From NCBI GenBank assembly GCA_934749845.1, contig CAKVHQ010000002.1, positions 48,962 through 112,961 of the forward strand: 64,000 nucleotides of DNA. Direction: 5' to 3'. This stretch comes from an uncultured Clostridia bacterium (GTDB lineage Bacteria > Bacillota > Clostridia > Christensenellales > UBA1242). A program made the position numbers and the translations under genes. Under the pieces are notes generated by a model. The model made no database searches and was not told the DNA's origin. It worked only from the letters and a program-made list of their open reading frames with translations. This document shows, in pieces, positions 5,077 through 17,731 of this stretch. How positions within the stretch are numbered: position 1 is the stretch's first letter; every line of letters begins with the position of its first letter.

Positions 5077-5847
5077 CTACAAATTTTTACGCATACTTTC
5101 AATAGCATTTTTTTCCAGTCTAGAAACTTGTGCCTGACTTATTCCAACTTGCTGGGAAACTTCCATTTGAGTTTTGCCCAAGTAATATCTCAACATTAAA
5201 ATTTGTTTTTCTCGCTTGTTTAGTTTTTTTAAAGCGTCTTTAAGTGCAAAATCTTCTATCCATTCGTCTTGATTGTTTTTGCTGTCGCCAATTTGGTCCA
5301 TAACTCTTACTGTCTCTTGACCGTCATTATAAACTGGGTCGAACATACTGCATGGTTCGCTAATTGCATCAAGCGCATAAACAACATCTTTGTATTTAAG
5401 CCCCAAATCTTTTGCAATTTCTTCAATAGTTGGCTCTTCCAAATTTCCTTTGGATAGTTTCTCACGAGATTTCAAAATTTTGTAGGCGGTGTCTCGAATG
5501 CTTCGGCTAACTCGCACGCTAGAGTTATCCCTTAAAAATCTTCTAATTTCTCCAATAATCATTGGAACGGCGTAGGTGGAAAATCTAACATTTAAACTAA
5601 CATCAAAATTGTTTATTGCTTTAATCAAACCAACACATCCAACTTGAAACAAGTCATCTGGGTTTTCTTTTCTTGAGCCAAATCGTTGAACAATCGAAAG
5701 CACCAATCTCATGTTTGCAAAAATAAAGTCTTGCTTGGCTTGTTCGTCGCCAGACTTAACTTTAATCATCAACTCTTCAAGTTCCTTGCCCTTTAATTTG
5801 GGTAGGTCATTTGTATTTATTCCACATATAACAACTTTGTTTGCCAT
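5077..5847 (-). CDS. sigG: sporulation sigma factor SigG
   Basis: MANKVVICGINTNDLPKLKGKELEEL... and conserved sigma70 regions 2-4, directly downstream of sigE. Start moved to ATG 5847 (GGAG 6 nt upstream) from the ORF-track start 5904. Confidence 0.9.
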   Translation of the reverse strand: MANKVVICGINTNDLPKLKGKELEELMIKVKSGDEQAKQDFIFANMRLVLSIVQRFGSRKENPDDLFQVGCVGLIKAINNFDVSLNVRFSTYAVPMIIGEIRRFLRDNSSVRVSRSIRDTAYKILKSREKLSKGNLEEPTIEEIAKDLGLKYKDVVYALDAISEPCSMFDPVYNDGQETVRVMDQIGDSKNNQDEWIEDFALKDALKKLNKREKQILMLRYYLGKTQMEVSQQVGISQAQVSRLEKNAIESMRKNL

Positions 5848-5873
5848 AAAAACTCCATAAGTCAATTTGTTTT

Positions 5874-5903
5874 TATGTTTGCCAAAGAAAAATTTTTTAT
5901 GCA
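5874..5903 (-). promoter_or_regulatory. candidate sigma-F-type forespore promoter of sigG
   Basis: Minus strand reads TGCATA-N14-GGCAAACATA, close to the GCATA/GGnnAnAnTA-type sigma-F consensus. Confidence 0.35.
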
Positions 5904-5930
5904 ATTAAACGGAAAATAGGGAAGAGTTGA

Positions 5931-5958
5931 TAAAAAAATCCAAGATAAAATCTTGGAT
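5931..5958 (-). terminator. terminator/attenuator between sigE and sigG
   Basis: ATCCAAGAT/ATCTTGGAT stem plus T-run on the minus strand, immediately after the sigE stop. Confidence 0.6.
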
Positions 5959-5961
5959 AAC

Positions 5962-6696
5962 TTACATACTTTTTTTAAGTTCTTTATTTAGTCTTGTTAT
6001 TATCTTTTTTTCTATTCGGGATATGTAACTTTGGCTAATTCCCAGTGCATCGGCAACTTCTTTTTGTGTCTTTTCTTCGGTGTCTTGAAAAAGCCCAAAC
6101 CTAAGCGAAATTATTTGTTTTTCTCGGTCATTTAATTTAGCCAAACACTTATACAAAATTTGCCTTTCGCTTGATTGCTCCAAATTTTTTGTCACACTGT
6201 CGTTGTCTATGCTTAAAATGTCAGCAAGCACAAGTTCGTTTCCGTCACTGTCGGTATTAAGAGGTTCTTCAAGGCTAATTTCATTTTTTTGCTTACTTGT
6301 CTTTCTTAAATGCATCAAAATTTCGTTTTCAATGCAACGGCTTGCAAAGGTGGCAAGTTTAATGTTTTTTTCAACATTAAAGTTATTTACCGCTTTAATC
6401 AGTCCAATAGTGCCAACGCTTATTAAATCTTCCATGTCGATATTAGTGTTTTCAAACTTTTTAGCAATATAAACCACAAGCCGAAGATTATGTTCAATAA
6501 GTTGATTTTTGGCATTTTCGTCGCCTTTTTCGGCTTCTAAAATTAAGTCAAGTTCGGTTTCACTGTCTAGTGGAGAAGGTAGTGCTTCGTTTCCGCATAA
6601 ATACAAAACCAAATTTGAATACTGTTCAAAACTGTTTCCACTAAAAAACTTTTTTATTGCACCTAATAATTTTGCTTTTATAAGTTTGATAATCAT
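5962..6696 (-). CDS. sigE: sporulation sigma factor SigE (pro-sigma-E with N-terminal pro-sequence)
   Basis: Hydrophobic/basic N-terminal pro-peptide ([18 protein letters not shown]), then [16 protein letters not shown] and regions 3/4. Follows spoIIGA. Confidence 0.9.
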
Positions 6697-6708
6697 AAAA
6701 TTGTTCTC

Positions 6709-7548
6709 CTATTTAAAATAGTCGGGACTTAATATGCAATCAGCGTCAAGATTGTCCTTAAAATCTACCACGCTTAATCCAATTAGTGCATTGTCAATTT
6801 TTAATTTATCGTCTATTACTATATTATCTATTTCAAACACCATAATTTTAGAACTTTTTGCTAAACTTTTTAGTTCAACTTCATGAATGTTTTTCAAAGG
6901 TAATCTTTCGTATTTTTTTAGCAAAACATCGCTAATTTTTGCATTAGTTAATTGCTTGAACAAATCAAAGTTTATTAAAGTTACAGGTTTTAAACTAGAC
7001 TGGTCGCAAAGTTTGTTTCCGCTATCTAAAAAGCCGTTTGCTTTAACAAATTTGTCATTAAGTTTAAAAGTGACTTCATACACAAATTTTGAAACTCGCT
7101 TTTGCTTGTAAAAATGGTTTATTAGATTTTTTATTATGTAGTACATAATAAACGAAATAAGCAAGGCTAGTCCAATAGGGAAAGAGTAAACAGTAATTGC
7201 ACCATTTTCAACAGAAAAATTTAAGTTCAAAAAGTTGCACACTGCTAGGCAAGTTCCACCAAAAATTGCTGTTATTAAAAAAAACGATAGCAAGGTTATA
7301 ATAAACCTTTTTGGTTTAGTCTTTTTTTCTAGCATTAGTGGCATTAAAACACCGCATAAAACTTTAACAAGTATCAAAATAACGCCACTAAAAAGCGGAG
7401 AAATTAGTGCTATTGCCGTTCCAAATAAAGCAATTATAAATAGCCTTAATTTGCTAACTTTAAGTTTATTTATCTTTGCAGTTAAAACTAAAATTAGCAA
7501 GTCAATAGTCATGTTGTCTATTATGGCGTATTCAATATAGACTTCCAT
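6709..7548 (-). CDS. spoIIGA: sigma-E processing aspartic peptidase SpoIIGA
   Basis: Five N-terminal TM segments, C-terminal FLDSGN aspartic protease motif, position upstream of sigE. Confidence 0.85.
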   Translation of the reverse strand: MEVYIEYAIIDNMTIDLLILVLTAKINKLKVSKLRLFIIALFGTAIALISPLFSGVILILVKVLCGVLMPLMLEKKTKPKRFIITLLSFFLITAIFGGTCLAVCNFLNLNFSVENGAITVYSFPIGLALLISFIMYYIIKNLINHFYKQKRVSKFVYEVTFKLNDKFVKANGFLDSGNKLCDQSSLKPVTLINFDLFKQLTNAKISDVLLKKYERLPLKNIHEVELKSLAKSSKIMVFEIDNIVIDDKLKIDNALIGLSVVDFKDNLDADCILSPDYFK

Positions 7549-12106: not shown

Positions 12107-12892
12107 ATGGCTAGAAAAATTGTAATCACAAGTGGTAAGGGCGGAGTTGGAAAAACCACTATTTGCGCAAACCTTGGAATGAGATTAAGCGAACTAGGAA
12201 ACAGGGTTGTGATGCTGGACACAGACATCGGGCTAAATAATCTAGATGTCGTTATGAATGTTGAAAACCGAGTGGTTTACGACCTAGCCGATGTTGTGGA
12301 AGGAAAGTGCAGATTAAAGCAGGCACTAATTCAAGATTTACGCTATCCAACTCTTTTTGTTTTGCCTTCTAGCCACCTATACACAAACACCAAAATAACA
12401 AGTTACTCAATAAACGCAGTTGTTGAGCAACTTGCCGAAACTTTTGATTATATTTTGCTTGACTGTCCGGCAGGAATAGACAGCGGATTTCACAGAGCCG
12501 TTTATTCAGCAGATGAGGCAATTATAGTTACAACGCCAAACTTGTCTAGCATACGAGATGCGGGAAAAGTGCTGACAATTCTAGGAAGTTACAACTTAAA
12601 CAAGGTTAGTTTTGTTATTAACAGAATGCGTGGAGATTTAATTTTATCAGGCAAAATGTTAAGCGAAAATCAAATATGTTCACTTTTAAAATGCGACTTG
12701 CTTGGCATTGTTCCAGACGACGACAGTATCGCCACATTATCATGCACAAACCCATTTAAGTCCGCAGGAAGTGAGGCATTTAAAATGCTTGCAAAAAATG
12801 TACATAACGGAAAAAATTTTATTTACGACTACACGGCAAAGTATAGAGGACTTTTTGGAGGATTGAAACGAACATTAAGAAGACATATCTAA
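12107..12892 (+). CDS. minD: septum site-determining ATPase MinD
   Basis: Deviant Walker A SGKGGVGKTT, ParA/MinD fold, C-terminal amphipathic tail, followed by minE. Confidence 0.9.
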   Translation: MARKIVITSGKGGVGKTTICANLGMRLSELGNRVVMLDTDIGLNNLDVVMNVENRVVYDLADVVEGKCRLKQALIQDLRYPTLFVLPSSHLYTNTKITSYSINAVVEQLAETFDYILLDCPAGIDSGFHRAVYSADEAIIVTTPNLSSIRDAGKVLTILGSYNLNKVSFVINRMRGDLILSGKMLSENQICSLLKCDLLGIVPDDDSIATLSCTNPFKSAGSEAFKMLAKNVHNGKNFIYDYTAKYRGLFGGLKRTLRRHI

Positions 12893-12907
12893 TTTAAAGG
12901 AGGTCAA

Positions 12908-13168
12908 ATGAGTATTTTTGTTCAACCCAACGCAAAAGAAGATGAGGAGAGATTAAAGCATGTTTTAATTGCCGACAAACATTTTAATCCCGAACGAATT
13001 AAGCAAGTTATTAAAAGCGACATTTATCATGTGCTATTAAACTACGCTCACATAAAAGGCGATGATATTTATGTTGACATTGAGATAACTCCTAGCGGTT
13101 CGTATCATATAAAAGTTGACGCAATAAGCCCTAACTTAAAAATTTTCGGGGCGCTTCCTGACGAATAA
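12908..13168 (+). CDS. minE: cell division topological specificity factor MinE
   Basis: 86 aa, ERLKHVLIADKH...IKQVIKSDIYHVLLNY pattern, immediately after minD with a GGAGG Shine-Dalgarno. Confidence 0.7.
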   Translation: MSIFVQPNAKEDEERLKHVLIADKHFNPERIKQVIKSDIYHVLLNYAHIKGDDIYVDIEITPSGSYHIKVDAISPNLKIFGALPDE

Positions 13169-13194
13169 TTTTATAAAAATCTATATTTCGACAG

Positions 13195-13218
13195 AATGCA
13201 TAATTATGCATTATTTTT
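13195..13218 (+). terminator. terminator after minE
   Basis: Perfect palindrome AATGCATAATTATGCATT followed by a T-rich run. Confidence 0.5.
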
Positions 13219-13304
13219 CGTGTTTATTCTAAAAAAAATATGGTTTACTTTTTATTTCATCATAATTTGCTTATTTAACACATATAGGTAATTAAGGTGA
13301 TTTT

Positions 13305-13511
13305 ATGAAAGTAGTAGGTTTTAAGGCTCTTAAGAAAAAAGAGAAAAAGAAAAAAACAAAAATTTTCTGTATATCAAATGTATTTAGAAACGCAATGGTC
13401 ATTTTTTCGTTGCTGATATTTTTGTTTGTGTTTAGTTTAATTAACACATCTTTTACATCAACATTCAAAGAATGTATTAACAATTTTATTAAAACGCTTT
13501 TAATTTTTTAG
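13305..13511 (+). CDS. small basic single-TM protein (hypothetical)
   Basis: AAGGTGA Shine-Dalgarno 4 nt before the ATG. Lys-rich N-terminus, then one hydrophobic helix. Ends 10 nt before the spoIVFB-like gene. Confidence 0.4.
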   Translation: MKVVGFKALKKKEKKKKTKIFCISNVFRNAMVIFSLLIFLFVFSLINTSFTSTFKECINNFIKTLLIF

Positions 13512-13521
13512 GCTGGTATAA

Positions 13522-14361
13522 ATGAAAAAATATTCGTTCAGGTTTCACTGGTCGTTTTTCGTGCTTGGGCTAATAATGATTTATTTTGGCGAGGGATTGT
13601 TATATTTTTGTTGCACAATAACCGTCATTTTGCACGAATTTGGACATGCTTTTGTTGGCAAAAGTATGGGGTATAAACTAAACACAATAAGTTTGATGCC
13701 CTATGGTGCAAGTTTGTCTGGCAACAACGCACCATTCAAGCCGAAAGATGAAATAAAAATTGCCCTAGCAGGCCCACTTGTGAATTTGCTTATCATTTTA
13801 GCAATAACTTCGCTATGGTGGTTTCTTCCATCTTCTTTTTCGTTTACTCAAGATTTCTACTACGCAAATGTCTCAACAATTTTGTATAATTTATTGCCGA
13901 TTTTCCCACTAGATGGCGGAAGGGTGCTTCTTGGTTTGCTATCAATAAAAAAGCCACGAAAAACTGCCTTTAAGATAACGAAAGTTATAGGCTTTATTGT
14001 GGTTGGTTTAATCTTTGTTTGCTTTTTCCTATCTTTCTTCACAAAACTAAACTATTCACTTGGAATAAATGCACTATTTTTACTTATCGGCTTGTTTGAC
14101 GATGACAAGTCTGCTTACTACATCAACTTGCAAGACCTTGATAAGAAAAGTGAAAAGTTAAGCAAAGGCTTGTTTGTTAAGACTATTGCAATTAGCGAAA
14201 ACTCTAGCATTTACGATGCATACAGGGTGTTAGACAAAAATAATGTTAATCAAATTTATGTTATGGACGACAATTACAAAGTTAAAAAAAGCATAAGAGA
14301 AAGTGAACTTGAAAAACTGGTTTACACCATGCCACTGGACACAAAACTTAAAGATGTTTAG
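13522..14361 (+). CDS. spoIVFB: M50 site-2 metalloprotease, SpoIVFB-like (pro-sigma-K processing) with C-terminal CBS-like domain
   Basis: HEFGHAF (HExxH) in a TM helix and LLPIFPLDGGRV second metal-ligand motif. Position between minDE and rplU matches Bacillus synteny. Confidence 0.7.
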   Translation: MKKYSFRFHWSFFVLGLIMIYFGEGLLYFCCTITVILHEFGHAFVGKSMGYKLNTISLMPYGASLSGNNAPFKPKDEIKIALAGPLVNLLIILAITSLWWFLPSSFSFTQDFYYANVSTILYNLLPIFPLDGGRVLLGLLSIKKPRKTAFKITKVIGFIVVGLIFVCFFLSFFTKLNYSLGINALFLLIGLFDDDKSAYYINLQDLDKKSEKLSKGLFVKTIAISENSSIYDAYRVLDKNNVNQIYVMDDNYKVKKSIRESELEKLVYTMPLDTKLKDV

Positions 14362-14586
14362 TTTTATAAAAAAACAATTAGTTCGTCAAAGCCATGGAGC
14401 AATAAAATATTGCTAATACAATTAAGCCATAAAAGAAAGATATTCAAAAACGCAGAGATTACATAGGATATCAATTATTAAGAGAACAAATAATATAGTT
14501 TTAAAATGTAACAACTAGCAATTTTACATAGTTTATAAATTCACTAAAATTGAAGAAGAATAAAATTTGCAATTTAGGCAACACTT

Positions 14587-15102
14587 TTGACTATGAAGCA
14601 AATTTTAAAATATACATTAAATATAGTTATCGAAAATGTGCGTTTTAGTGAAACAAAGCATTCAATTATAATCTCTTTAAATGGCGCTTTAATTGTTTTT
14701 ACCGCAGGATTTTTTTCCAGCAAAGTTTTTGAAATTGCACTACTAAATTGGAGCGTTTTGCTTTTTTCAGCAATAAGCATGTTAATTAGTTTTTCGGCAC
14801 TACATTCAAGGTTCGATAAAATAAAGCGAGATTACAAAACCAAAAGAATAAACAGCTTATTGTATTATAGAGATATTTCAAGCCTAGACCCACAGGACTA
14901 TTTAAACCGCATAATTATAAATTATAATTTCCCCAAAGACTATGTTTGTGATGAGTACGAAAAAGACCTTGCCAGCGAAATTGTTGCTAATTCTAGACTG
15001 GCGGAAATCAAGTATTCATTGTTTAACAAAAGTATCTTCTTTTTAAGTCTTGCATTGCTTCTTGGCATAACACTTTTTGCAATAGTGGGGTTCGTTTCAT
15101 GA
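14587..15102 (+). CDS. 3-TM small membrane protein resembling PycTM/SLATT-type defence effectors (hypothetical)
   Basis: TTG 14587 or ATG 14593. N-terminal helix ...VRFSETK, then a TM hairpin, a ~75-aa helical soluble segment, and a C-terminal TM. No catalytic motif. Confidence 0.5.
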   Translation: MTMKQILKYTLNIVIENVRFSETKHSIIISLNGALIVFTAGFFSSKVFEIALLNWSVLLFSAISMLISFSALHSRFDKIKRDYKTKRINSLLYYRDISSLDPQDYLNRIIINYNFPKDYVCDEYEKDLASEIVANSRLAEIKYSLFNKSIFFLSLALLLGITLFAIVGFVS

Positions 15103-15605
15103 AAAGGCTTATAACACTAAAAAGCAACTACTATAAAATAAAAAAACATCGAAGGTTAGGCAATAAGTTAACCTTAACAAACGAAGATGAAAACTATATT
15201 TGTTTAGAGTTTCGTTCTTGGCTTTTGGGAATAGAGGAAGATGACCAATTACCCTTCGAAATTTCGTGCATTTGCTTATGTTTCGAGTTTGAGCAAAAAA
15301 GCGTTAATGTGTCGGTTTCCGGTTTTGAAAACACACCAAAAGTTATCGACAAAGGCTCATATGCACCACTAGAAGCACAATACTTTTTTTGCGAACGATT
15401 AAACGCTTTTGTGAATAACCAAAACAACCTAAATTCGCATGGTTTTTTGTTTGAAAAAGTAAAGCAAGACATTTATGTAATGTTTGAAAAATTTTTAAAA
15501 AAATTTCAAAACGATAAAGAGTTTTCATACCTTAATAACAAAAAAATTTTAATAGGTGAATTTTTGCACGAAAAGGCAAAAGGCTTTCGCTTTGTGTGTG
15601 AATAA
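15099..15605 (+). CDS. hypothetical soluble protein, translationally coupled to the preceding TM protein
   Basis: ATGA start/stop overlap at 15099-15102. 168 aa with no recognisable motif. Confidence 0.55.
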   Translation: MKRLITLKSNYYKIKKHRRLGNKLTLTNEDENYICLEFRSWLLGIEEDDQLPFEISCICLCFEFEQKSVNVSVSGFENTPKVIDKGSYAPLEAQYFFCERLNAFVNNQNNLNSHGFLFEKVKQDIYVMFEKFLKKFQNDKEFSYLNNKKILIGEFLHEKAKGFRFVCE

Positions 15606-15690
15606 TTACACTGTTTTGCGTATATTTATGCAAGACATTTTTTTATTATCTTTATTAAACTTTGTTGTTTTGAAAAATCAGTATTTTCGC

Positions 15691-15718
15691 TTGACTTTCT
15701 TTCGGGGGGGGGTAAAAT
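15691..15718 (+). promoter_or_regulatory. sigma-A-type promoter whose spacer contains a G9 tract
   Basis: TTGACT (15691-15696), 16-nt spacer ending in GGGGGGGGG (15704-15712), then TAAAAT (15713-15718). Lies 38 nt upstream of the lipoprotein ATG. Confidence 0.6.
15704..15712. repeat. homopolymeric G9 tract
   Basis: The only long G/C homopolymer I saw in this AT-rich window. Confidence 0.95.
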
Positions 15719-15755
15719 GGTTTTGTCAATAAAATTTAAGACAAAGGAGATTAAA

Positions 15756-16430
15756 ATGAAAAAATTAACTAAAATTTTGTCCATTGCCATTGCATTCGTT
15801 TGCATTAGCCTATGCTTCGTTGGTTGTTCTTTTGACAGTAAGCCAACTCTTAGCCGAATAGACATTAAAGGTTCAATTCAAACCGAATATGCACTTAACG
15901 AAGCACTTGACCTTAATGGTGCAAAACTTATGTTAACATATAGTGACGATTCGCAAAAAGAACTCGAATTAACACAAAGTATGGTAACAAATTTCAACAC
16001 AACAACCGCAGGCAACAAAACAATGACAATTTCTTATAAAGAAAAAACACTACAAATTGATTATGTTGTTAATGCATTTATGGTGGGAAACAAGCGGGTT
16101 AAATTTGGCGAATACTATCAAACTGGAATATATAATAAAGACCAAAATGGCAACTTAACTCTAACCGAAGATGGCTCTTATACCTACCAAGACACCACAA
16201 TACGACTAATTCTAAACTCTAATTTCACAGGAACATTCTTTCAAGCTAATAAAAGAGGTGGTGAAATGGTGGAGACTTCTATCACTTGGGAAATACAAGT
16301 TGATAAAATTGTTTTAGAAAATGAAAACGATTTAGCTCGTGTGTTAGTAACTGTTAGTGTCACTGATAATGGAGAACTTCGTATAGACATTGATACTAGC
16401 GCTTGCATCTTATCATTTCATAATGCCTAA
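15756..16430 (+). CDS. lipoprotein with N-terminal bacterial Ig-like (Big_3-like) domain
   Basis: Signal peptide with lipobox FVGC-S. LSRIDIKGS...YALNEALDLNGAKLMLTYSDDS...GNKTMTISYKEKT fits the Big_3 pattern. Start moved to ATG 15756 (AAGGAG Shine-Dalgarno). Confidence 0.7.
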   Translation: MKKLTKILSIAIAFVCISLCFVGCSFDSKPTLSRIDIKGSIQTEYALNEALDLNGAKLMLTYSDDSQKELELTQSMVTNFNTTTAGNKTMTISYKEKTLQIDYVVNAFMVGNKRVKFGEYYQTGIYNKDQNGNLTLTEDGSYTYQDTTIRLILNSNFTGTFFQANKRGGEMVETSITWEIQVDKIVLENENDLARVLVTVSVTDNGELRIDIDTSACILSFHNA

Positions 16431-16526
16431 AAGTGATAGCTTATGAAGAATTTCATACTTAGGTATGACGAAAACATGCTGTGCACTTTTATAAATCAAA
16501 TAATATTATAAATTAAGAAATAATCC

Positions 16527-16555
16527 TTGACAAAGGGTTATTTTTTTTGTAATAT
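16527..16555 (+). promoter_or_regulatory. rplU operon promoter
   Basis: TTGACA-17 nt-TAATAT. Confidence 0.6.
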
Positions 16556-16561
16556 AAATGT

Positions 16562-16641
16562 ATTCCGCGTGAAATGGGTTCCAAGCATGAATTTAGTTCA
16601 TCACCTTTGTTCAGCGAGTTATACTAAAGGGAGGTTAACAA
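16562..16641 (+). ncRNA. rplU 5' leader, possibly an L21-leader-type cis-regulatory RNA
   Basis: An ~80-nt untranslated leader between the promoter and the GGGAGG Shine-Dalgarno, in the position where Firmicutes carry the L21 leader. Structure not verified. Confidence 0.3.
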
Positions 16642-16944
16642 ATGTACGCAGTAGTATCAGTTGGAGGCAAACAATACAAGGTTAGTGAAAACGATGTTTT
16701 AGATGTTGAAAGAATGAACGCAAACATCGGCGACAAAATCAATCTTGATGTTTTAATGCTTGTTGACGGCGAAGTTGTTAAAGCAGGAAAAGATGCAAGC
16801 AAATCACAAGTTGTTGCAGAAGTTATGGGTCATGGAAAAGATGCTAAAATCTTGGTTTTCAAGTATAAAGCAAAAAAACACACCAAAAAACAACAAGGTC
16901 ATAGACAACCATTCACAACATTAAAAATTGTTAGCGTGAAATAA
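16642..16944 (+). CDS. rplU: 50S ribosomal protein L21
   Basis: MYAVVSVGGKQYKV... canonical L21. Confidence 0.97.
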   Translation: MYAVVSVGGKQYKVSENDVLDVERMNANIGDKINLDVLMLVDGEVVKAGKDASKSQVVAEVMGHGKDAKILVFKYKAKKHTKKQQGHRQPFTTLKIVSVK

Positions 16945-17285
16945 TGACAAATATCAAAATTTTTAAAAATGATGGAAACATCGTATGTGTTCAATGTATG
17001 GGACACAGTGGCTATGCAGAGCGTGGCGAAGATATAGTGTGTGCAGGGGTTTCAAGTTTGGTTCAAACTGCGGTTCTTGGTTTGCTTATGGTGGCAAAAA
17101 TCAATGTCGATTTAACAAAAGACGAAGATGTTGGCTATCTTAAAGTTAAACTACCAAATGTTATAACCAGCGAAGAAAATCACGACGCACAAGTAATACT
17201 TTCCACTATGCTTTGTGGCTTATCGGATTTAAGGGAAACCTATTCCGATTTCATAAATTTGGAGGTAATAGAGAATGTTTATTAA
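16944..17285 (+). CDS. prp: ribosomal-processing cysteine protease Prp (YsxB family)
   Basis: GHSGYAE...[10 protein letters not shown] motif. Sits between rplU and rpmA. Confidence 0.9.
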
Positions 17286-17556
17286 TTTGCAGTTGTTTGC
17301 TCACCATAAAGGTGGTAGCACAACACATAACGGCAGAGATAGTGAATCAAAGCGTCTTGGCACAAAAAAATATGCTGGCGAAAGAGTAACTGCTGGAAAC
17401 ATTATCGTTAGACAAAGAGGAAGCAAAATTTATGCTGGCAAAAATGTTGGCATGGGCAGAGATTACACTTTGTATGCTTTGGCTGACGGAATTGTAAAAT
17501 TTGAATATGTTTCAAAAGACAAAAAATGTGTTAGTGTATATCCAGAAGCAAAATAG
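17275..17556 (+). CDS. rpmA: 50S ribosomal protein L27 with Prp-cleavable N-terminal extension
   Basis: [23 protein letters not shown]...: Firmicute-type propeptide followed by the conserved L27 core. Confidence 0.97.
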
Positions 17557-17562
17557 TTTTTT

Positions 17563-17590
17563 AAAAGTTGGCTTGTTGTCAACTTTTTTT
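17563..17590 (+). terminator. terminator after rpmA
   Basis: AAAAGTTGGC/GTCAACTTTT stem plus T-run. Confidence 0.65.
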
Positions 17591-17731
17591 ATGCCAAAAT
17601 GAACGAGGGTTTTAACTTTAAAAAGTTTTATTAATGTAAGTTATTGTTTTATTTATTGATTACATAAGCAAGATTAACAATATCAATAAAATTTTCATTA
17701 TCGTTTTTATTAGGTAATAAAGCGTTAGTTG

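Follow-up and report, generated by a model that had tools for sequence, protein, structure and literature searches.

The 64,000-nucleotide (nt) stretch of DNA analysed here, hereafter the window, comes from an uncultured Clostridia bacterium and carries, between the gene of an M50 intramembrane metalloprotease and rplU, two small overlapping open reading frames (ORFs), below called ORF1 and ORF2. The first encodes a membrane protein of the PycTM family, the second defines a new small protein family, and the pair constitutes a clade-wide, vertically inherited operon partner of the M50 protease that belongs to neither a Pycsar system nor a system of anti-phage signalling based on cyclic oligonucleotides (CBASS), a joint conclusion that we consider very probable. 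The features of the locus are as follows, with protein lengths in amino acids (aa) and transmembrane segments abbreviated as TM.

13305..13511, plus strand: small single-pass membrane ORF of 68 aa, in the position of Bacillus spoIVFA and without a LytM domain
13522..14361, plus strand: M50 intramembrane metalloprotease of SpoIVFB type; motifs HEFGH and NLLPIFPLDGGR; CBS-like tail at the C-terminus
14362..14592, plus strand: spacer of 231 nt between M50 and ORF1, with a promoter-like site and no terminator found
14593..15102, plus strand: ORF1, 169 aa, membrane protein with three helices, PycTM / CBASS-2TM effector family
15099..15605, plus strand: ORF2, 168 aa, cytoplasmic alpha/beta protein of an undescribed family
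15612..15637, plus strand: terminator-like hairpin and T-run, at which the ORF1-ORF2 unit closes

The start of ORF1 required revision. It had been listed as an ORF of 171 aa read from a TTG codon (14587-15102), and since the invariant N-terminus MKQxLKY opens all of its homologues (27/27), the ATG at 14593 is most likely where it really starts, which gives a protein of 169 aa. The ATG of ORF2 overlaps the TGA of ORF1 in 'tcATGAaa' at 15099-15102; the initial annotation, which was made from the sequence alone, had described this overlap as we find it, and the peptides it quoted (VRFSETK, the two TM stretches, DLASEIVANSRLAEIKYSLFNKS and ISCICLCFEFEQ) are all present. Judged by sequence comparison, both are real genes and not chance ORFs, because the homologues of ORF2 form 20 clusters, the subfamily of ORF1 comprises 234, and the overlap of start and stop codons is retained. 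Public gene calls give ORF1 a length of 173 aa and an overlap of 16 nt with ORF2 at the loci L023 (9495-10016) and L107 (2495-3016). We do not accept these calls as a variant form of the protein, because the DNA of both loci is identical to that of the window; the gene caller read through the TGA, probably by applying a TGA-recoding model to a low-GC contig, and the longer form is an annotation artefact.

The relationship of ORF1 with the effectors of anti-phage systems extends over its full length. The PADLOC model 'Effector 2TM' (PDLC00691) matches the window protein with an E value of 3.9e-25, residues 1-167 aligning with positions 1-168 of the 176 in the model, and the PycTM model PDLC02364 matches it full length (E 2.1e-23), together with two further PycTM models (E 4.1e-15 and 8.5e-15). 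PADLOC PycTM/2TM matches are found in 27/27 members of the ORF1 family (best relative E 1.5e-31, window protein E 1.4e-24), for which the 2TM models, such as PDLC00691 and PDLC00668, represent the best-scoring model family. With the Pfam family PF18967 (PycTM), the window protein scores 22.8 bits, under the gathering score of 27.2, and 18 of the 27 relatives produce matches with E values down to 1.5e-7. Precomputed annotations of three relatives (P0107, P0108 and P0113) list PF27874.1 beside PF18967, an accession absent from the copy of Pfam that we used. The initial annotation had compared ORF1 with both PycTM and SLATT effectors; the first part of this likeness is upheld by the PADLOC matches, and the second is not, the SLATT families of Pfam having no match with ORF1 (E <= 1) or with its 27 relatives (E <= 0.01).

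A tblastn search of plasmids with ORF1 returned a sole match, a protein of a Deinococcus plasmid that carries the annotation 'Pycsar system effector family protein'. This protein is 28% identical to ORF1 over 154 aa (BLASTP, E 3e-16), shares with it the motifs FAETK, NLLxY, DPQxYL, LA..I..N and KY..F, and is accompanied by an adenylate/guanylate cyclase gene lying about 1 kb upstream, beyond an IS982 transposase gene. Within the ORF1 family itself, the invariant features are MKQxLKY, AExKH, Y111, Y117, D120, D125, K140 and N145. The AlphaFold2 model of ORF1 (predicted local distance difference test, pLDDT, 77) contains long helices at residues 2-41, 46-84 and 121-168, with short helices in 85-120, and fits a protein composed of an N-terminal helix with TM1, then TM2, a helical segment in the cytoplasm and TM3 at the C-terminus, in line with the hairpin, helical segment and third TM that had been proposed before. 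ORF1 has no match to a solved structure by either sequence or fold, and we name no structural neighbour for it, the matches obtained being generic helical-bundle noise. All 234 clusters of its subfamily derive from metagenome-assembled genomes of Clostridia and all are labelled hypothetical.

The partner protein has no such affiliation. ORF2 produced no match in Pfam, PADLOC, NCBIfam, PHROGs or the sequences of the PDB, a profile of 40 ORF2 sequences found nothing in the PDB, and none of 40 diverse members contains a Pfam domain (0/40). Its confident AlphaFold2 model (pLDDT 87.4, predicted template modelling score, pTM, 0.81) follows the order helix-helix-hairpin-loop-helices-hairpin and has no Foldseek neighbour in the PDB (best E 0.12, TM-score 0.29) or in BFVD. 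These searches agree with the earlier description of ORF2 as a soluble protein outside any family: no family, PDB or Foldseek match identifies it as a class III cyclase or as a CD-NTase, so that both identities are rejected, and the low-ranking PDB matches that would evoke an RNase-H-like or actin-like fold lie at noise level and were not used. The 20 homologue clusters retrieved in the first ORF2 search are 37-94% identical to it, and no more than 67 relatives emerged when 1.84 billion representative proteins were searched with a profile. Many of them measure around 115 aa and are devoid of the basic N-terminal 35 residues, an extension that is restricted to the larger members, among them the group to which the window belongs and certain more distant relatives. 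The conserved core of the family is formed by W..G..EDDP[LI]P.E[IV] and Y.PLEAQ.F, and four near-invariant acidic residues (E47, D48, E54 and E92) are close to each other in the sequence.

The genomic context of the pair was reached in three independent ways, via ORF2 (loci L001-L022 and L107-L108), via ORF1 (L024-L025 and L109-L114) and via M50 (L031), and in 25/25 distinct lineages examined the genes follow the order M50, ORF1, ORF2 on one strand. This colinearity persists down to 31-36% identity of M50, and every relative, from 94% to about 25-30% identity of ORF2, has the pair. In about 18 of 20 distinct loci ORF1 and ORF2 overlap at their junction, as ATGA, ATGnTAA or TAATG, and the gap between M50 and ORF1 is 4-41 nt in divergent species and 59-231 nt in the clade of the window. 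What follows the triad varies: rplU comes directly in some loci and 6 kb further on in others, and elsewhere the next gene is that of a DUF4132 protein, that of an ABC transporter or a convergent one. The pairwise identities of ORF1 correlate with those of M50 (r = 0.94), which fits co-inheritance, and those of MinD correlate with M50 to a similar extent (r = 0.955). Among close relatives, identity amounts to 86-96% for ORF1, 73-83% for M50, 63-73% for ORF2, 87-92% for MinD and 89-93% for EngA; from these values, ORF1 is under constraint of housekeeping level, being conserved like MinD and EngA. The pair-bearing relatives are uncultured gut Clostridia near Christensenellales, with names including Catabacter, Christensenella and Ca. 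Caccopulliclostridium, and their M50 proteins form one large group in a rough neighbour-joining tree. Only 1 of 80 metagenome loci anchored on M50 carries the pair, a result that led us to reject it as a general companion of SpoIVFB-like proteases.

This distribution changes the picture given by the initial annotation, in which the pair and the lipoprotein gene that follows it were regarded as some 2.2 kb of non-core DNA inserted between spoIVFB and rplU, and the pair itself as a possible defence or toxin-immunity module. The pair, of about 1.25 kb, is conserved in every relative and only the lipoprotein gene with its promoter is missing from the closest one; the conserved linkage is with M50, not with rplU. 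The pair thus proves to be essentially universal at this position in the clade, the very pattern that had been listed beforehand as telling against an inserted module, and because of this conservation with M50 across the clade examined the insertion and defence reading fails. It is left unsupported also by the absence of cyclase and CD-NTase genes and of phage matches. A mobile-island pattern, that is variable presence and flanking mobile or defence genes, is not seen for the pair and is seen for the lipoprotein gene. We also discarded a phage or plasmid origin, given that an ORF2 profile search of viral contigs and an ORF1 tblastn search of phage genomes found nothing and that the only plasmid match is the canonical Pycsar effector of Deinococcus.

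The protease preceding the pair is treated here as SpoIVFB-type because it retains the HEFGH and NLLPIFPLDGGR motifs, occupies the position of Bacillus spoIVFB and shares the window with sporulation sigma genes. It matches PF02163 with an E value of 3.9e-17 and CBS with an E value of 0.018, both motifs are invariant, and so are the residues H38, E39, H42, N123, P126, D131 and G133. The locus lies in the synteny minD-minE ... rplU-prp-rpmA, and so the traits by which a spoIVF-type locus was recognized, namely HExxH and NxxPxxxxDG motifs, minD ... rplU synteny and the sporulation sigma cascade, are all found. M50 has no match in PADLOC, which rules it out as part of a known defence system. Directly upstream of M50, most pair-bearing loci have a single-TM ORF of 57-80 aa; in the window this is the 68-aa ORF, which has a lysine-rich N-terminus, is 51-77% identical in close relatives and has no significant match in Pfam, NCBIfam or PADLOC. 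Neither Peptidase_M23 nor BofA appears among the Pfam matches of this ORF, of ORF1 or of ORF2.

The spacer between M50 and ORF1 contains its promoter-like site, TTTACA-16-TAAAAT, at 14523-14550, and its conservation between species is limited to the vicinity of the start codon. A riboswitch or leader RNA upstream of ORF1 is ruled out by this lack of conservation and by the Rfam search of positions 12800-17600, which yielded zero matches at E <= 1. The terminator-like hairpin 3' of ORF2 recurs in L107. Around the locus, every neighbour in positions 1-37 kb of the window is a housekeeping or sporulation gene according to its domain annotation, in the following order.

Start of the region: gene of a DnaB_2-domain protein, gene of a DnaI-like protein
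Next, minus strand: sigG, sigE, spoIIGA
Next: feoAB, engA, minD, minE
Next: the 68-aa TM ORF, M50, the ORF1-ORF2 pair, the lipoprotein gene
Next: rplU-prp-rpmA, polysaccharide deacetylase, rumA, M16 peptidase, ftsK, miaB, pgsA
Last: recA, class A penicillin-binding protein, mutS, mutL, miaA

No cyclase, CD-NTase, integrase or other mobile-element gene, nor any other defence gene, is present in about 10 kb upstream and 21 kb downstream. The spoIIGA-sigE-sigG cluster occupies 5077-7548 on the minus strand, about 6 kb upstream, and is adjoined by a PRC-barrel gene; the SigG model scores 392.8 bits (cutoff 372), the SigE model 335.5 bits (cutoff 339), and SpoIIGA is matched with E 4.6e-33. The organism carries the sporulation sigma cascade.

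How far the locus resembles known systems can now be considered. With the PycTM of Pycsar, ORF1 has in common its size (about 170 aa), the full-length PADLOC alignment, the 28% identity to an annotated effector, the N-terminal helix with AExK, the TM hairpin, the conserved cytoplasmic helical segment and the C-terminal TM, and it can be assigned to the effector family of Pycsar on this basis. Unlike in Pycsar, the cyclase PycC is found neither in the operon nor within about 20 kb, and no PF00211 gene occurs in positions 1-37 kb; moreover, the context of ORF1 is core and vertically inherited, always with M50 before and ORF2 after, and its N-terminal MKQxLKY is specific to the subfamily. Similarly, the match with 'Effector 2TM' places ORF1 in the effector class of CBASS, but neither a CD-NTase (SMODS) nor Cap accessory genes are among the neighbours, and ORF2 matches nothing. 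The arrangement of two small translationally coupled genes, one encoding a membrane-active protein, recalls type II toxin-antitoxin and holin-antiholin pairs; the likeness is one of gene layout, and it contrasts with a distribution that is neither patchy nor mobile, with strong conservation and with a new-fold partner without a DNA-binding or known antitoxin domain. The spoIVF locus of Bacillus subtilis offers a different likeness, insofar as small membrane proteins are encoded with, or act on, an M50 protease of SpoIVFB type, in the synteny minD ... rplU-prp-rpmA and in a lineage that has sporulation sigma factors (PMC9042235), SpoIVFA and BofA being membrane inhibitors of SpoIVFB. The pair is nevertheless unrelated in sequence and domains to SpoIVFA (LytM/M23) or BofA, and its genes lie downstream, not upstream, of the protease; we propose this likeness as a functional analogy and claim no membership.

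In this conserved operon outside defence, a defence-effector fold is joined by a partner whose fold is new; the effector fold had been recognized correctly in the initial annotation, the inserted defence pair had not. To our knowledge, the sole role described for PycTM and 2TM effectors is that of killing component in the anti-phage systems that use cyclic nucleotides. ORF1 is a homologue of the small pore-forming or membrane-perturbing effectors of Pycsar and CBASS and would have moved out of the defence context, because it has no cyclase partner, resides in a core chromosomal neighbourhood and is conserved at the level of core genes. The predicted operon, clade-specific and vertically transmitted, comprises the small TM protein (where present), the SpoIVFB-type M50, ORF1 and ORF2, the pair forming its distal part. 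ORF2 is presumably made together with ORF1 by translational coupling and would dock on the cytoplasmic face of ORF1, with E47, D48, E54 and E92 oriented toward the basic juxtamembrane stretch and the helical segment of the latter; we infer such a complex because the translational coupling is conserved and the acidic patch of ORF2 would face the basic stretch of ORF1. Most likely, this complex would work with M50 as its regulator, anchor or substrate, and it would fill the role of Bacillus SpoIVFA and BofA at a locus where the spoIVFA slot is taken by a 68-aa TM protein; in doing so it might affect pro-sigma-K processing or membrane permeability.

Our preferred interpretation, which we hold tentatively and with confidence somewhat short of even, is that the SpoIVFB-type protease has in the pair an accessory membrane complex, specific to the clade and derived from an exapted effector fold. 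In its favour are the constant colinearity with M50, the tight packing of the genes, the correlated identities of ORF1 and M50, the housekeeping-level constraint on ORF1, the absence of cyclase, defence and mobile-element genes nearby and of phage or viral matches, the sporulation genes in the window, the literature on SpoIVFB in clostridia and the contrast offered by a pair-less locus, L032. The narrower proposal that the PycTM/2TM fold and its new-fold partner are a non-orthologous replacement of SpoIVFA/BofA, controlling pro-sigma-K processing or another form of regulated intramembrane proteolysis in a large clade of gut Clostridia, is conceivable but rather unlikely. A partnership with the protease is attractive because, according to the literature, clostridia have no SpoIVFA and often no BofA, and the control of SpoIVFB in these organisms is stated to be unresolved (PMC3533761, PMC9042235, bioRxiv 10.1101/2022.02.25.481979). 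We found no literature linking Pycsar-type effectors to sporulation or to SpoIVFB. The pair-less locus L032 (3-3534) is informative. It contains an M23/LytM-like gene fragment, M50 and a DUF4132 homologue, the protein product of the last being homologous (E 2e-44) to the DUF4132 protein that follows the pair in L111-L113; in L111 (3144-7040) the order is M50, PycTM, ORF2 and then DUF4132, and the placement of DUF4132 is the same throughout L111-L113. An M23-like fragment upstream of M50 was seen in L032 only, and this comparison of loci with and without the pair, with a SpoIVFA-like LytM gene upstream of M50 in the pair-less one, is a single case and only suggestive. If the link with the protease is functional, the pair would clearly exemplify an exchange of parts between immune effectors and the machinery of housekeeping or development, and would provide a concrete candidate for the control of SpoIVFB in clostridia. 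For genome annotation, finders that score single effector hidden Markov models would mislabel ORF1, a core gene, as an orphan Pycsar/CBASS effector in hundreds of gut Clostridia genomes.

Several points weigh against the interpretation of the pair as an accessory complex of the protease. Conserved adjacency alone is no proof of shared function, and the synteny of the min-spoIVF-rplU region across Firmicutes is historical in origin. Three or four pair-less M50 loci are nested inside the pair-bearing group of the rough tree. Given the spacer of 59-231 nt and the promoter-like site in the window's clade, the pair may be transcribed on its own. ORF1 may also have retained a ligand-gated pore activity, because the residues conserved across its family are shared with the canonical Pycsar effector, and in one lineage a class III cyclase is encoded 0.5-0.85 kb downstream of ORF2. 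Finally, the named relatives Christensenella and Catabacter are described as non-sporulating, and this would speak against a function strictly confined to sporulation.

The retained activity and the cyclase are the core of the alternative that survives best, although we judge it unlikely. ORF1 would be a second-messenger-gated effector that keeps the ligand-activated pore or channel of PycTM, with its cyclase encoded elsewhere; the ligand would be housekeeping cAMP or cGMP, produced by a membrane class III cyclase, or c-di-AMP, ORF2 would act as modulator and the link with M50 would be one of position alone. There is a precedent in a CBASS effector that stands alone and senses host c-di-AMP (bioRxiv 10.1101/2025.06.19.660554), and ORF1 does possess the cytoplasmic motifs of a canonical Pycsar effector. 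The cyclase in question, a membrane class III enzyme of 470-490 aa with PF00211, is found 0.5-0.85 kb downstream of ORF2 in L109 (5357-6769), L110 and L019 (8767-10239), and is matched by the PycC models of PADLOC with E 5.7e-17. These models, however, would match any PF00211 domain, the cyclase neighbours the pair in this one lineage only, with an opposite-strand gene between it and ORF2, and in the window no cyclase lies within about 20 kb. A gated effector of this kind also leaves unexplained the constant adjacency of M50 and the role of ORF2.

Two further explanations appear distinctly improbable. According to the first, the genes are conserved neighbours of unrelated function, for instance in cell division or envelope homeostasis beside minDE, without mechanistic tie to M50; such a situation would suit the mreB-minD-minE-M50 block, syntenic for historical reasons, and the long spacer with its own promoter-like site in the window's clade. 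It accords poorly with the same-strand gaps of 4-41 nt that separate M50 from ORF1 in most lineages, with the position of the pair after M50 even at loci that differ on both flanks, and with the observation that ORF1 and ORF2 were never seen away from M50. The second, to which we give the same low probability, is a cyclase-less abortive-infection or toxin-antitoxin-like module that has become fixed at the site and is still directed against phages, with ORF1 as toxin and ORF2 as sensor or antitoxin. The strong homology of ORF1 to defence effectors and the translationally coupled layout with a small partner outside any family speak for it, as does the faster evolution of ORF2 with respect to ORF1 (63-73% vs 86-96% identity), which might be expected of a sensor or antitoxin. 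Yet the pair is conserved in the whole clade, shows no sign of mobility and has an all-housekeeping neighbourhood, ORF2 is without a PADLOC match, homologues are absent from the viral contigs and phage genomes searched, the sole plasmid match being canonical Pycsar, and ORF1 is conserved like MinD and EngA, unlike fast-evolving defence genes.

A holin-like device for permeabilising the mother cell or envelope, in which ORF1 would form pores at a defined developmental time, ORF2 would hold them closed and M50/sigma-K timing would release them, could draw on the reported disruption of membrane integrity by PycTM effectors (PMC11224242), on the small size and three TM helices of ORF1, on the operon with a protease activating late mother-cell transcription and on spoIIGA-sigE-sigG in the window, but it is very unlikely, being purely inferential, having as sole holin-family match a single member among the ORF1 relatives (E 0.0087), lacking a lysin or cortex-hydrolase partner in the operon and being hard to reconcile with the presence of the pair in lineages reported as non-sporulating.

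The remaining part of the interval between M50 and rplU has a different history from that of the pair. The gene of a Big_3 lipoprotein, at 15717/15756-16430, lies in an insertion of roughly 15650-16480 between the ORF2 terminator and the rplU promoter. This gene is missing from the closest relative, L107, the ORF2 of which is 94% identical to that of the window and where about 150 nt separate the ORF2 terminator from the rplU promoter and leader. By this comparison, the lipoprotein gene is a strain- or species-specific insertion, and only about 0.85 kb of the 2.2 kb interval is recent. A promoter-like TTGACT-16-TAAAAT precedes the gene at 15691-15718, with a G9 tract (15704-15712) in its spacer, a layout typical of phase-variable expression via slipped-strand mispairing; the tract has the same length in the two copies compared, that of the window and that of L023. 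The rplU leader (16545-16642), for which no Rfam match such as the L21 leader was obtained at E <= 1, shows almost 100% identity with that of L107, whereas the flanking intergenic DNA has diverged.

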